A DNA stretch of 64,000 nt from Dudresnaya verticillata (taxonomy: Eukaryota), in NCBI GenBank assembly GCA_977862235.1, contig OZ374557.1, positions 2,852,001-2,916,000 on the forward strand, written 5' to 3'. A program made the position numbers and the translations under genes. How positions within the stretch are numbered: position 1 is the stretch's first letter; each line of letters opens with the position of its first letter. Shown one piece after another: positions 21,278-35,618 of the stretch. The notes beneath the pieces are model-generated. The model was not told where the DNA came from and did not search any database. It saw nothing but the letters and a program-made list of their open reading frames with translations.

Positions 21278-21522
21278 GAACACTGGTGTCCCGCGTTTCA
21301 GAATGTACTTTCAAAAACAGACTGAAATAAAACGCTTCAAACGTACATGCGTTGGAAAAGGGCGCGTCCCCTGAGCACGCTGGTGCAAACGGGATAGAAA
21401 CTAGGCAATACTTCGCGAGTTATGCAGGTTTGCGTGCTAACCCGGCAGCGGGTCTGAAAGAATTAATTTCTGGGCAATTTCCGATAACTTTTAATCTTGA
21501 ATTTTAGGTAACCTCGGCCAGT
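21278..21522 (+). repeat. Left TIR
   Basis: GAACACTGGTGTCCCGCGTTTCAGAATGTACTTTCAAAAACAGACTGAAATAAAACGC...AGGTAACCT; reverse-complement match to 35374-35618. Confidence 0.92.
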
Positions 21523-23755
21523 CCAATGTCGCCCGTCATGCAGTTTCAGGGGTATAGGAAGTTCTAGAAGATGAAACTGGGCACAAAGCTGATTCGAATA
21601 CCAGTCTTTCGAGTTCAGAGTTATTCTTTGGCTGCGGGGTCTGGGCAAAGCCATTTTACCGTCTGAAGGCTTCTTGACACCTGTAATTATTCCAGAATCG
21701 TTCTTCCCTTCTATTATAACAAGCGGTTGAGTGAATTGAGCTGCCATTTCTTCCCAACTCGTTTCCCGCTTCCCGTCCTTTATACATACCTGAAATGTAG
21801 TAGTGGAAAGAAGAGCCTAACCACCGCTCCTGGTTCCAGGACGGCATTGACAGTAAAAGCGCACTGCTCTGAAGGCTACCTAATCACCATGTTTCTGGCC
21901 TAGAATTCCTTTTCTTTGGGAGCGGAAAGGTGCGCCGTTCTACTGAGGCCGGTTGTCACGATTACTCTCCTTTGTCTCTCTCTCAGCTTTGTCTTTTCCT
22001 AGCAGTGCCCGCAAAAAGGAAGAGTTGGCGTGGTCTGCATGAAAAACGTTCTCCCGTGGTTGTGCAACAGTCTTCAAAACATCAGAGACCTAAAAAAAAG
22101 CAGGTGGGATAGCCCTCAAAACAGCCATTGCTCTACCCATGTTTTTGCTTCTGTCCTAACGGGCTCCCTCTAGCACTTGTTTGTTGGGGAAGGCAAGCAG
22201 GACATGAGCACGAATCGATTCCTGGACATCTATTCTCATGAGCACAAATCGCTTGACTCAATATGTATGGTACCTGTTACCTGTTACGCCTGCAGTATGC
22301 AGCAAGAACTGGGCAGGACCAATGCCGAGCAAGGGAAAGGGACAACGTGCAGGGGTAGTCCCATCCCTGACTCGGTGCCAGTGCACCGTGGTTACCCCAG
22401 CCCCCATTGAGCCGGCTCTAACACACGTGCAGCACGAGTAATCATTGCCCTACTGCATAAATAGCCACGTCATGGCATCGCGATACCTGCTGGCGCAAAT
22501 CTCCACCAACATCCAAGCTACTCCATAAACAGCTCCCACAGTCACCAACAGAGCGTACGCTGCATCCGGTGCAACGGGGGTACACCTCCGTGTATGTGCC
22601 CATGCTCAAACGCTCCACAATAAATTCGACAGACCCGTCTGTAGCTTCTAACATCCTGTGCCATTGATTCTCGCCACGCTCTCCACAAGGTCCAAACCTC
22701 CTTCAGCAAGCGGCACAAGATCGTTCCTGATCAACAATGAGGGGTTGCGTTCCATTATACTCCTCGACTGGTTGCCTACTCACTTCTCATCAGTCTTTTA
22801 CTGAACCGCTGGCTCATGAGCCGTGGTTCACCTGACCAACCATTTCTCGATTTGCGGTTCTGGCTGCACTTTGTGCACGAGCCCCTGTCTTTTTCCGCTT
22901 TGGCTTGTTATCGAGGAAAACGTCCCCTCGAGCTTCCCATTTCAACTCTTCCTGAAGCCCTGCCCTATTTGAAGGAGAAGCAGCACATACGTCCCGTAGC
23001 AGATCATTCGATTCCTGTGACATCTGTTTGTCGTCATCGGCCCTGAGCAGCTTTACTCCTGCAACAAAGTCTGGCTTCGGTCCCCATAGAGGCATTACAC
23101 ACGGAAATAACTTGAGCAAACGAGTCTTCACATTCGCCACATTGTCTTGGCGTAGGGGTAACAGCTCTTTCTTGACTTCCATTTTGAAATGGCATTGAAC
23201 GGCTTGGTCGAGACGATGTCAAGTTCAAACTTTGCACCATCAATGAACGCCAGGCACACCCAATACACCTACCCTCAAGGAACTTCCGTGCGCAAGTGGA
23301 TCTGGGTATAATTTCGCCGGGTCGTATACATTTACCTCCCTTCGTTCTGAAAATATCAGAAACTCCTAGAATCAGACAAATCAGGTGGTTCCACGCCATT
23401 TTGCAATATATCCCAGACGTATCACCAGCGCCGGCACCTGCCTTCACCTCCTCAATATTAATTCCCGGTGGTATCATCAGCTGGAAGGCGATCTTCGCGA
23501 CTCGGAGACGACAACCGTCGGCATGCTGGACCAGAAATGTCGTAATCTTAAGCTGCAATGCGTGAAGATAATGACGGGAAGGAAACTGCTACTTCCTCTA
23601 CTCGAAGGCGTTTGCAGTTGCTCGGCAAAGGGCTGATAGTCGGCAACGCTGAGCCACTCGTCCCACCAGAGCCTAGTGCAGCAGACAGTAAATGATGCTA
23701 TTGCACTAGACTACATGGGTATTATCTGCACGAAGTCGAGGAGGAAGGACAAACA

Positions 23756-24367
23756 TTGGCGGTCATTTACAAGGTGAAGATAGAAGCAGAGTTTGCTTGG
23801 AAGACATCCCGTTACACCTACAAGGCCGTAGAAGATCCACCTGCTACTCTTCGCGGTCTTGAGGTTGGGATGCATGTTTGGGACGTGTCGCAGATGCGCA
23901 ACAAACACGTTCCCAGCCGCTCCAATAGTAAACCTCACTCACCAACCCCCGAGACACCTCTAGACAGGCATAAACAGGCCGTGAAAACACCACCCAAGGC
24001 TTGGAGAGGAGGAAAGCGACTCACTGTGGTTTCCCCGCAAACAGCACCGTCGCCAGCATTAACCGCGTCACCTCTGCAGTACACACCTCGAACCAGACCT
24101 ACATGGCGACCTCGGCCACAGGTTTTAAACCTGGCAGATGGACCTACTCCGCGAGAAGAAGAATCTAGTGATGAGGTATATGTACCGGGGAGTGAGGGGA
24201 CGATAGCGATACGCTTGAAAAGGCGGAGAAAGGGGCTGAAAGAGAAGGACCAGTGGAACCAAACGAAATATCCAGCCCTCTCTGGGGAGACAAGTGCTGC
24301 TGCTAGACCAGGGTCGGAAGAAGAGGACATGCACATAGAAGAACAGAACACTCGGCAGAAGCGATGA
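23756..24367 (+). CDS. Hypothetical low-complexity ORF, possibly the N-terminus of the transposase
   Basis: 203-aa open frame with a basic NLS-like KRRRK, directly upstream of the transposase fragments. Confidence 0.3.
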   Translation: MAVIYKVKIEAEFAWKTSRYTYKAVEDPPATLRGLEVGMHVWDVSQMRNKHVPSRSNSKPHSPTPETPLDRHKQAVKTPPKAWRGGKRLTVVSPQTAPSPALTASPLQYTPRTRPTWRPRPQVLNLADGPTPREEESSDEVYVPGSEGTIAIRLKRRRKGLKEKDQWNQTKYPALSGETSAAARPGSEEEDMHIEEQNTRQKR

Positions 24368-32939: not shown

Positions 32940-35373
32940 TCCGAATATGGAGGTGATTACCTAGATGGCCGTGAAGGATTTTAGAACAAGGTCAAGAACT
33001 TATTCAAACCCCGGAAGGGGCGTACAAGGTGGCAAGTGAGCTTTCCCGCGTTGACCGCACAGACTACCGCTATAGTCTAGGCCTTGGAGACAGGCATCAC
33101 ACGATATATCGCATGGAGATCCTGTGTGCTTTCTTTCAACGACGGGTTAAAGATACGTGTTTCTACGTCACGTAACTGCCCTGGAGACGACCGTACAGTC
33201 CGAGTGCAACCGAAACGGTTGTGGATGGGAGATTTTGATTCTCGTCAATCAAATTTGGGTAGGACAACAACGTGTGCTAATACGCGTGCCAGGTAATACG
33301 TGGGCAATCCGAATCCCAGGGTTCATGTGATGAGTTCAGTCTCCCTCCCATATACATTGTAGAGAGAAGCAGGAACAATATATCCTGTAAGACATCTCTC
33401 ACGAACGTTTACGGCACAAAGCAATAATGAAGACCGAAACCCACCACCGTGATGTTGAGATGACTGCTGCAACAGGAAGCGCCCCTCATTGAGTCTCGGA
33501 AGTGGCTCACGCTCAGTTACTAAGGACGGCATGCCATTGCACTTGAATCGTGCATGGCACATGGATGGCACTATCGAAAAGAACAGAATGGAGCACAGAG
33601 ACCCGGCTGTACATCGTCAGTGTCAGACAGAGCTGCAGGATGTAACATTTGATGTGGTGGAAGTGGGCCATAAAATGGAGTCCCTGAATGTAGCCGACTT
33701 GTGCAAGGACGGGTAGTGTGCGAAGAACATCTTGAAACGGTTCGGAATGGCAAGATTGGAGCGTATATTGATATTATTCAGCAGCACAGGGAAGCAAATA
33801 ATCGGTCTAGAAACTCTGGGCATCAAGCTCTTTGACAGATCGGTCTTCAAGACTTTCATGACGGATGCAATAGGGAAAGAAGGGCAATACAATGTGGCAG
33901 GGCGCGAGCAAGATTTCGCATTGAGTAACGTCCTCAGGGATACAAGAGAGAGAGGAATACAGAAGCTGCGTGAGATGGCTCCCAACCTTCTGCATGTCTG
34001 CACGAAAACGTCGACAGTATGAGACAGCAGTTCGCAAAGTCCATGAAGAGAAGCGCATAAGCTCAAGGATGACCATTGTGAACATTCCTCCACCAGGTAC
34101 TCCCATCGATTGGGATTCGTCGCGTCCGCAAAAAAATAACAACTGCGGACCAAGAACGGTCTGCATGCTAGCGATTACCGAGGTTGCAGCGGTGTCGCAA
34201 TAGGGAAAATATGTGCAGAGTTGGTGTAAACGAGGTCAACTAAACTTCAGAATGGTGCCCGGTTCCGTCTATAAAAGGGAGTGGTACAGTGTCGGTTTGA
34301 GGGTTGGTGGAGACGCTTTGGATGGAGAGTTGCGATGAAGCACCGGAAGCGTTGGTGCTGGAGGTGCGGAGACTGCGCGCCGAGCTAGAAGAGGCTCGAG
34401 CGCGAGCCAGGCGTCATACCAGTGACACTATATGACTTCGTCTGGACTTGGTGGGGCGGGCACGGGTCATGATTGCGGATGCTGTCGCAGTTTAGGTGGT
34501 GAAGGTGGTGCTGGAGGGAATACTGGTTTTCTTAGGGTGGTGGGCGGTGGAGGTCGATGAAGAAGACCCGGAGTCTGAAGCGGACTGAGGTTTAGGGTAA
34601 AGGTAGTTGAGGAGTGTTAGTTACAGATAAAGTTAGTACGGGAGCGGTTGTGTATGTTTATCATGCTGAGGCGCTTGAAGAGGGGAACGGGCGCAAGTAA
34701 GGAATCGTGCTGTGGACTACTACGGGAGACGGCTTTGAGTGCACTTTCGAAGTTGGTTCAAGTGCACGACTAGAAATGGGCGTTTGTGGTTTTGACCGGG
34801 GTGTTTGACGAGCTGCAGCTCGCTACATGTATCAGGAACTGCACGGGTGAAGTACGAGGGGTCCGGAGCGGGGCACGAGGTCTAACTTATGACCACGTCG
34901 ATTGCACGGCAATGTGGGACAAAACGCAGTACCGGAGCCCAGTCCAAGCCCCATGGCGTAGGTCGACGGAGAGGACGGTATACATTGGGAAGAGCGCTAC
35001 ATGAATGCCGTCGCACTGTGCAGCCCATGCTGTAACGTTGGTGGAACAGGGATCACAATACTTGGGTGGGGTTTTTGGTTGTCGCGGAGGAAAACAAAGC
35101 CGGTGCGTCGGTGAGGAGGGAGAGTGTAGCGGGCGAGTGCGACTGCGCAGAGCAAGTCCTGAAGCCTAGGGAAGAGCAGATAGTGCATGGCAGTAGAGAG
35201 GTAGCGTGCAGTTGCCGGTTGACGGATGCACGAAGTGGCACCGGAGTGAGTCCGGGAAGGGAATTCATGGCAGTGCTGCAGTACTCTGCATGTCATGGGG
35301 AGAGCGGCATTGAACTGACGAGTAGTTCTGCACTGTTGGGGCAGCGTATACTGCGCGGTGAGGGGCCCATGTA

Positions 35374-35618
35374 ACTAGCCTAGGTTACCTCAAAATCCGA
35401 ATTAAAAATCTCAGAAATTACACCAAAATTATTTATTTCAGACTCACTGCCGGGTTAGCACGCCAACCAACATAACTCGCGAACTACTACTTAGTTCTCT
35501 ACTCCGTTTGAACCAGCGTGCTCCGGGGACGCTCCCCTTTCCAATGCATGTACTTTGTAAGCGTTTTATTTCAGTCTGTTTTTGAAAGTACATTCTGAAA
35601 CGCGGGAAACCTGTGTTC
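35374..35618 (-). repeat. Right TIR
   Basis: ...GAAAGTACATTCTGAAACGCGGGAAACCTGTGTTC, inverse of the left TIR. Confidence 0.92.

Follow-up and report, generated by a model that had tools for sequence, protein, structure and literature searches.

Introduction

Among the closest described systems to the element studied here, a decayed 14.3 kb insertion in DNA of Dudresnaya verticillata (contig OZ374557.1 of assembly GCA_977862235.1, positions 2,852,001 to 2,916,000; these 64,000 nucleotides are hereafter the window), is Sola1-1_Ec32 of Ectocarpus. By its published description this element is 21.5 kb long, has a 282 bp terminal inverted repeat (TIR), AACCG-CGGTT termini and a 4 bp target site duplication (TSD), and encodes a 1104 amino acid protein with ParB and N4C/N6A methyltransferase domains, for which self-modification was proposed (PMC12477816). 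In Bostrychia as well as in further red algae, Plavaka giant DNA transposons were described with the accessory genes PAG1-3; inverted-repeat arrays neighbour PAG2 and PAG3, and self-binding was proposed for PAG3 (bioRxiv 10.1101/2025.02.11.637652). Self-binding and anti-silencing were shown for VANC of VANDAL elements (PMC5735166), and self-binding was shown for TnpA in the anti-silencing of Spm (bioRxiv 10.64898/2026.08.24.746577). ParB-linked eukaryotic methyltransferases and phage ParB-methyltransferase loci were described as well (PMC4738411). Giant algal ParB-methyltransferase transposons have already been published, as a hypothesis without a mechanism, and the novelty implied by a sequence-only reading of the window has to be given up, since the same architecture is described for Sola1-1_Ec32.

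What is new at this locus is an unnamed small domain, common to the transposase and the methyltransferase of the element, which may couple them. As far as Sola1-1_Ec32 is described, the window element resembles it in exceeding 10 kb, in its long imperfect TIRs (~245 against 282 bp), its AAC...GTT termini, its probable 4 bp TSD and a ParB-methyltransferase gene on the strand opposite the transposase. It differs in its length (14.3 against 21.5 kb), its host, and the presence of a MTHFR fragment and a central array; the published description names two domains in the Sola1-1_Ec32 accessory protein, neither common with its transposase. With the PAG systems, as published, it has in common N6A-methyltransferase and ParB genes, mobile between transposable element (TE) families, beside inverted-repeat arrays; among the library matches listed the shared domain is found on ParB and 2-oxoglutarate (2OG)-like proteins that resemble PAG3. 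The PAG systems differ in their EnSpm/Plavaka transposase and in the fusion of the methyltransferase to SET and of ParB to a 2OG oxygenase, whereas in the window element ParB and methyltransferase form a single protein; Pfam finds no SET domain in the window, and a ParB-2OG profile matches the shared domain only.

Like VANC and TnpA, as described, the element has its own accessory protein and clustered family-specific motifs inside it, and like TnpA this protein has a domain of common origin with transposases. VANC and TnpA differ in that they cause loss of 5-methylcytosine (TnpA through host demethylases) and have other folds (helix-turn-helix for TnpA), whereas the accessory protein here has a predicted writer of its own and its shared domain is a predicted beta-barrel. 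The bacterial and phage beta-class methyltransferases (M1.HpyAVI, CcrM and M.BceJIV; PF01555) agree with it in fold and in having motif IV before motif I, and an association with ParB is common to the described phage ParB-methyltransferase loci (PMC4738411) and the window element. Unlike these enzymes it stands in a eukaryotic transposon and has a fused C-terminal shared domain, and its catalytic motif is often lost among relatives.

On balance we lean towards reading the element as a dead giant DUF7869 transposon whose ParB-like methyltransferase was a self-targeting regulator, acting at the element's own array and coupled to the transposase.

Insertion and termini

The family is known here from one decayed copy within the window, which interrupts a Gypsy gag gene. 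The termini and the flanking host sequence are as follows.

17032..21274, minus strand: host Gypsy, 3' part of gag and pol, outside the transposon (paralog alignment, Pfam)
21275..21278: left TSD candidate CCAG, one mismatch to the right copy (2 bp alternative at 21276-21277)
21279..21522, plus strand: left TIR, starting AACAC, 84% identical to the right TIR
35374..35617, minus strand: right TIR, finishing GTGTT, inverted repeat of the left TIR
35618..35621: right TSD candidate CAAG, from the flank parse
35622..36400, minus strand: host Gypsy, 5' part of gag, outside the transposon (paralog alignment)

The inverted arms lie at 21268-21522 and 35374-35628 and are the sole long pair around the region; counted inward from 21279/35617, they agree at 206 of 244 aligned bases. 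Another Gypsy copy, at 45.4-50.3 kb of the window and a paralog of 67-70% identity, served as an internal reference: it aligns with the left flank to 21275, and from 35619 the right flank continues at the next reference base. Since the reference is continuous across the insertion with no gap, the insert and one TSD together measure 14,343 bp, a figure that presumes no indel at the junction relative to so diverged a paralog. The ~245 bp TIRs and the flanks that rejoin as one Gypsy gag, both claimed in the sequence-only reading, are thereby recovered.

Two symmetric parses of the ends fit with one mismatch each. In one, a 4 bp TSD (CCAG left, CAAG right) encloses 21279-35617 with termini AACAC...GTGTT; in the other, a 2 bp TSD (CA/AA) encloses 21278-35618, and on a single insertion it fits equally well. 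The first is preferred because the Ectocarpus Sola1-1 termini (AACCG-CGGTT) and 4 bp TSD match it, and the ends are probably at 21279-35617. The location of the insertion is therefore as first proposed, while the termini given then, 21278..35618, probably overshoot by 1 bp at either end. The Gypsy sequence around the insertion is itself symmetric (GACTG at 21267-21271, CAGTC at 35625-35629), which suggests a palindromic target preference. The sequence is ~51% GC, its genes have no introns and show no CpG depletion, and no Rfam family was matched within 21-36 kb. The GC content and the lack of introns, together with the PAG-like system, suggest a red seaweed as host.

Transposase and accessory gene

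Two large decayed genes face each other within the TIRs.

23588..26512, plus strand: decayed DUF7869 DDD transposase, aligned to the intact relative P0002 (978 amino acids)
29995..32957, minus strand: decayed ParB-like and beta-class DNA methyltransferase gene, aligned over its full length to intact relatives of 922-1015 amino acids

The plus-strand gene carries about six internal stops and about five frame changes, and still keeps the catalytic motifs IIDGAD, DNC.RENK and GHTHxDID. With a stop read as X it matches DUF7869 (PF25273) at an expect value (E) of 1e-25, with 90.9 bits against a gathering cut-off of 26, and this match together with the alignment to P0002 bears out the DUF7869-type transposase that had been proposed. 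Each of D535, D618 and D658/D660 is kept by 11 or more of 12 relatives, and all are present in the window copy; a DDD triad is thus in place, with either D658 or D660 as the probable third catalytic Asp. One candidate identity, Plavaka, was rejected: the transposase piece matches DUF7869 only, not EnSpm/Plavaka.

By its motifs and terminal features the element is probably a transposon of the Sola1 type. The TIR length fits the published Sola1 range of 11-1124 bp (PMC10741241), and further Sola features are described elsewhere (PMC4455052). The AWWT target preference reported for Sola1 (PMC3845634) is not matched by the candidate TSD (CAAG/CCAG); Ectocarpus Sola1-1 is likewise listed with a differing target bias, 'ending in A' (PMC12477816).

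The minus-strand gene has two internal stops and three frameshifts, so both genes are broken and the copy is indeed decayed. Across its ParB part it matches the intact relatives at ~45%. A DPPY motif lies near 31122-31133 with motif I downstream, which is the beta-class order (motif IV N-terminal to motif I). Two separate pieces of the window gene score 25.7 and 20.6 bits against PF01555, where intact relatives score 46-58 bits, and a model of the methyltransferase matches M1.HpyAVI (E 2e-10) and CcrM (E 1e-9) in Foldseek. By motif and fold the accessory protein has a beta-class amino methyltransferase in its middle, with predicted activity and target base; DPPY favours N6-adenine over N4-cytosine. 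Alignment scans with the methyltransferase gave no matches in metagenome and viral contigs.

The N-terminal part is less clear. The full-length model is poor outside the methyltransferase (predicted local distance difference test score, pLDDT, 40.5), and the ParB part has low pLDDT. It has a VDGxHR (GxxR-type) motif, weak matches to PHROG 1033 (E 0.008) and GmrSD_N (E 0.023), and an Atlas score of 0.92 to the PF02195 cluster with a template modelling (TM) score of 0.50; the Pfam scan lists no PF02195 match for it. Such features hint at ParB, and of the ParB-like/DPPY methyltransferase first proposed, the gene, the DPPY motif and the methyltransferase fold stand firmly and the ParB label only weakly. 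By Atlas features, residues 15-420 of the relative P0015 also resemble an ascomycete DUF3723 cluster (0.92). We take DUF3723 to be a Starship accessory gene, which may hence be ParB-like, and we note this as a lead.

A domain shared by transposase and methyltransferase

The N-terminus of the transposase and the C-terminus of the methyltransferase carry a common domain of ~95 amino acids. Both window copies are found with a hidden Markov model (HMM) built from methyltransferase C-termini only.

23612..23902, plus strand: shared domain, transposase N-terminal copy (E 4e-14)
29998..30273, minus strand: shared domain, methyltransferase C-terminal copy (E 1e-14)

The same HMM matches the transposase P0002 at E 1e-24, with reversed controls at E 0.19 or above. 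Since the two window copies have no DNA similarity to each other, the sharing is old. A library-wide search with the domain gave 170 proteins, of which 150 were listed and the 50 listed matches of at least 300 amino acids were classified. These comprise 22 methyltransferases with the domain C-terminal (a ParB part was detected in 13), 11 DUF7869 transposases with the domain N-terminal (eight recognised by profile and three truncated), ten ParB-like proteins with the domain N-terminal (in six a 2OG-type HxD motif was recognised, by its pattern alone), four unassigned proteins and three spurious repeat proteins. The domain thus links transposases, methyltransferases and ParB-2OG-like proteins. 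In a tree of 47 rows it groups by carrier type, with five changes against 19.4 when shuffled, and there are weak signs that it may have reached transposases twice.

No family was found for the domain in Pfam or among PDB sequences, and its best Atlas score is 0.79. A word-based search with it returned nothing beyond the query itself, and Foldseek with its model gave nothing at E 0.001 or below. The model is a small beta-barrel, predicted to be SH3-like. No literature describing a domain common to these transposases and accessory proteins was found, although a text search can easily miss a domain that has no name. A supposed resemblance to the CACTA-associated DUF8039/Transposase_23 domains was supported by no scan and was dropped.

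Dyad array and palindromes

Between the two genes lies a dense array of half-sites.

28433..28795: symmetric dyad array, where the ParB-like protein is predicted to bind, with ends CCGGATA/TATCCGG

The core of this 363 bp array is AAACCTAT-n-ATAGGTTT, a motif found nowhere else in the window. It holds 14 ACCTW half-sites in 350 bp, against five or fewer elsewhere and 1.2 expected; the array scores z 8.1, and the symmetry of the whole array gives an alignment score of 73 against a shuffle maximum of 42. Half-site density and overall symmetry together substantiate the spaced repeat array of the sequence-only reading.

Related loci were collected by transposase-anchored scans, which gave the best 80 of at least 203 confirmed loci and 12 from prokaryotic genome contigs, 92 loci in total; the transposase scan of viral contigs had no matches. 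The twelve DUF7869 matches in prokaryotic genome contigs (L081-L092) probably represent eukaryotic contamination, and one of them, L087, also contains a Helitron. Fourteen loci, 13 of them distinct, have a flank of 4 kb or more on one side. In seven of these 13 a ParB-like gene adjoins the transposase, with a methyltransferase fold in L004, L010, L013 and L022 and without a clear one in L027, L036 and L038; the shorter-flank loci L009, L030 and L031 also have a ParB-like gene. L022 has the layout of the window (transposase, array, methyltransferase), while the other ParB-linked loci are arranged divergently. No TIR pair with a TSD could be defined in the related loci, most of which do not extend far enough. 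The suggested lineage of large TIR transposons, with a ParB-like methyltransferase as a recurring accessory, does find support, as the accessory recurs in five independent relatives, L004, L009, L010, L013 and L022.

Repeated long palindromes, counted in loci of at least 3 kb, are present in seven of 11 ParB-bearing loci, in eight of 43 others and in none of 54 shuffled loci (Fisher p 0.006, or 0.012 once near-copies are collapsed). The palindrome sequence varies from element to element. Palindrome cores also occur in the transposase region (L038:6691 and L027:6538), several of them containing GAT/ATC, and the L038 site lies between two transposase ORFs (open reading frames), probably in an intron.

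One explanation for this pattern is that the ParB-methyltransferase and the palindromes form a self-contained cassette that hitch-hikes on transposons, with the 363 bp array as a nested miniature element, neither serving its carrier. The array is indeed symmetric from end to end and has a terminal repeat of its own, and in L027 and L038 the ParB-like gene has palindromes to either side. PAG genes were reported to transfer between TE superfamilies (bioRxiv 10.1101/2025.02.11.637652). In a quick tree of DUF7869 homologs (69 rows, with 35 short or broken loci dropped, including L009) the eight ParB-linked rows are dispersed, with eight changes for eight rows. Yet the shared domain sits on the transposase itself and so links the genes, the methyltransferase gene of the window has no bounding termini, the array motif is confined to the array within the 64 kb, and the L038 site lies between transposase ORFs. 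Nested insertions with termini of their own were looked for throughout the element and, the repeat of the array excepted, no internal termini bounding the cargo were found. We therefore consider such a cassette quite unlikely.

Proposed mechanism

Returning to the self-targeting regulator, we infer its biochemical steps from what can be seen in the DNA. A TIR-bounded insertion splits the Gypsy gag and contains both genes, the array and two copies of the shared domain, and in relatives a transposase, a ParB-like gene and palindromes again occur together. A dimer of the ParB-like protein would recognise the dyads of its own element, the dyad sequence being element-specific. The beta-class domain would then write a mark, likely N6-methyladenine (6mA), at the array and so keep the element active; relatives without DPPY would only flip and bind bases. 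Through the SH3-like shared domain the accessory protein and the transposase might be joined in one complex or at one host chromatin partner. Such a module would work like VANC or TnpA.

Several observations weigh against this reading. Six of the 13 long-flank loci (L001, L057/L062, L058, L085, L087 and L090) have no ParB-like gene. The ParB-like call for L027, L030 and L036 was reached through chained BLAST matches only, and a direct profile comparison for L027 was not significant. The array motif is missing from the TIRs. Under the strict palindrome test L004, L009 and L010 were overlooked, although arrays are visible in L004 and L010; a dyad-density score found the array in only one of five methyltransferase loci, and in a looser palindrome count arrays could not be told from background. 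Both the linkage and the palindrome counts are confounded by flank length and kinship. The shared domain was seen in just one of the first 14 transposases and in none of the 92 related loci, and is a subclade feature. Its model has a middling pLDDT of 70.8 (one model of five), and its SH3-like structural matches are generic only (Tudor, BAH, PWWP and Sm, best Z 4.0). Finally, five of the 22 related methyltransferases among the long matches listed lack the motif IV region, and of the 17 that have it seven keep DPPY and ten have lost DPPY/F/W; motif IV is also lost in L004 (AIPS) and L010 (DIPK). Because of these ten, catalysis is not conserved, and DNA modification cannot be upheld as the conserved core of the family that it was first taken for.

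The loss of motif IV in intact ORFs, in the ten relatives as well as in L004 and L010, would fit a different role, namely that of a structural cofactor of transposition. The accessory protein would bind the array and help to pair the ends of a 14-20 kb element through the shared domain, its methyltransferase fold being mostly vestigial or used for base flipping. ParB-like genes occur with other enzymatic domains or with none, the accessory protein mirrors the transposase in their common domain, and maize TnpA is reported to be needed for transposition (bioRxiv 10.64898/2026.08.24.746577). Against this, DPPY is kept in the seven library matches, in the three first relatives and in the window copy, with DPPF in L013 and DPPW in L022, and the enzymes joined to ParB are repeatedly ones that modify DNA or chromatin (methyltransferase, SET, 2OG-like), for which marking is a better fit than scaffolding. 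A cofactor role is thus possible but rather unlikely in our view, and the self-targeting regulator is the reading we retain.

A wider and speculative version, which we put forward as a doubtful extension, would be a modular set of epigenetic tools that algal giant transposons address to themselves. A reader of the ParB-like kind, recognising element-specific, parS-like palindromes, would be combined with an exchangeable writer (6mA methyltransferase, SET or 2OG oxygenase) and with an SH3-like, transposase-docking tag carried by all three protein types. The methyl mark would permit only self copies to transpose or to be expressed, and the result would be a eukaryotic transposon that marks its own DNA and ties this mark physically to its transposase. 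PAG-type genes also appear to ride on the DUF7869 transposase family. In L022 the methyltransferase is fused to SET (L022:4516-5970, by Pfam), and by eye there is a SET-like ORF at L038:3-824 and a 2OG-like ORF at L029:1091-1933.

Should the self-targeting model hold, transposons would be able to place a DNA mark themselves and not only erase that of the host, and family-specific pairs of palindrome and protein would be natural tools for sequence-specific methylation. The element offers testable handles in the defined candidate array, the expressible intact relatives P0015, P0017, P0021 and P0002, and the shared domain.

MTHFR fragment and remaining segments

The rest of the element consists of gene remnants.

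21523..23587: internal segment with short ORF remnants (22814-23588, minus strand); one weak tblastx piece in the 92 loci
26992..28047, minus strand: captured eukaryotic MTHFR fragment, decayed, residues ~191-526 of a 617 amino acid reference
29121..29969, minus strand: ORF remnants, helical-looking by eye, no Pfam match
32958..35373: internal segment with ORF remnants at 33623-34235; Pfam E 0.022 only, taken as noise

The minus-strand MTHFR fragment of the sequence-only reading is found at ~26992-28047. MTHFR acts in the supply of S-adenosylmethionine (SAM), and a fragment beside the array and inside the TIRs raises the idea that it was a working part of the module, supplying methyl groups from the folate cycle to SAM. 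However, ~190 N-terminal residues of its catalytic barrel are missing, what is left is spread over three frames, and the 92 related loci, most of which are short and belong to other families, contain no match. A role in the module is very improbable on these grounds, and that part of the earlier proposal falls. Because only residues ~191-526 are present, over three frames, MTHFR is a truncated piece of host sequence that was captured as a passenger.

The several unassigned ORFs also noted at the outset prove to be remnants without a credible Pfam family in six frames: across the remaining ~5 kb the six-frame scan gave nothing below E 0.02, and none of the 150 listed shared-domain proteins matches 21523-23587. 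Besides the array, there are no internal repeat pairs in the element.

Other features of the window

Just past the Gypsy gag, at 36800-42550, there is a further insertion. It has a region rich in dyads at 36.9-37.6 kb (z 6.6), a 174 bp direct repeat (41654/42026) and, at 42470-42550, repeated palindromes. Its ORFs at 38408-41056 on the plus strand have no Pfam match and a CxxH-type motif, which we take to recall Mutator transposases. Two long ORFs elsewhere in the window, at 52117-54360 (minus strand, 747 amino acids) and 3542-4942 (plus strand, 466 amino acids), likewise have no Pfam family. An ORF with an RWP-RK domain (58468-59559, plus strand, E 2e-7) is the only likely host gene recognised in the window. 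Additional Gypsy elements lie at 7618-11826, 44677-51055 and 61596-63824, the last with an integrase and a chromodomain between 385 bp direct repeats of 98% identity.

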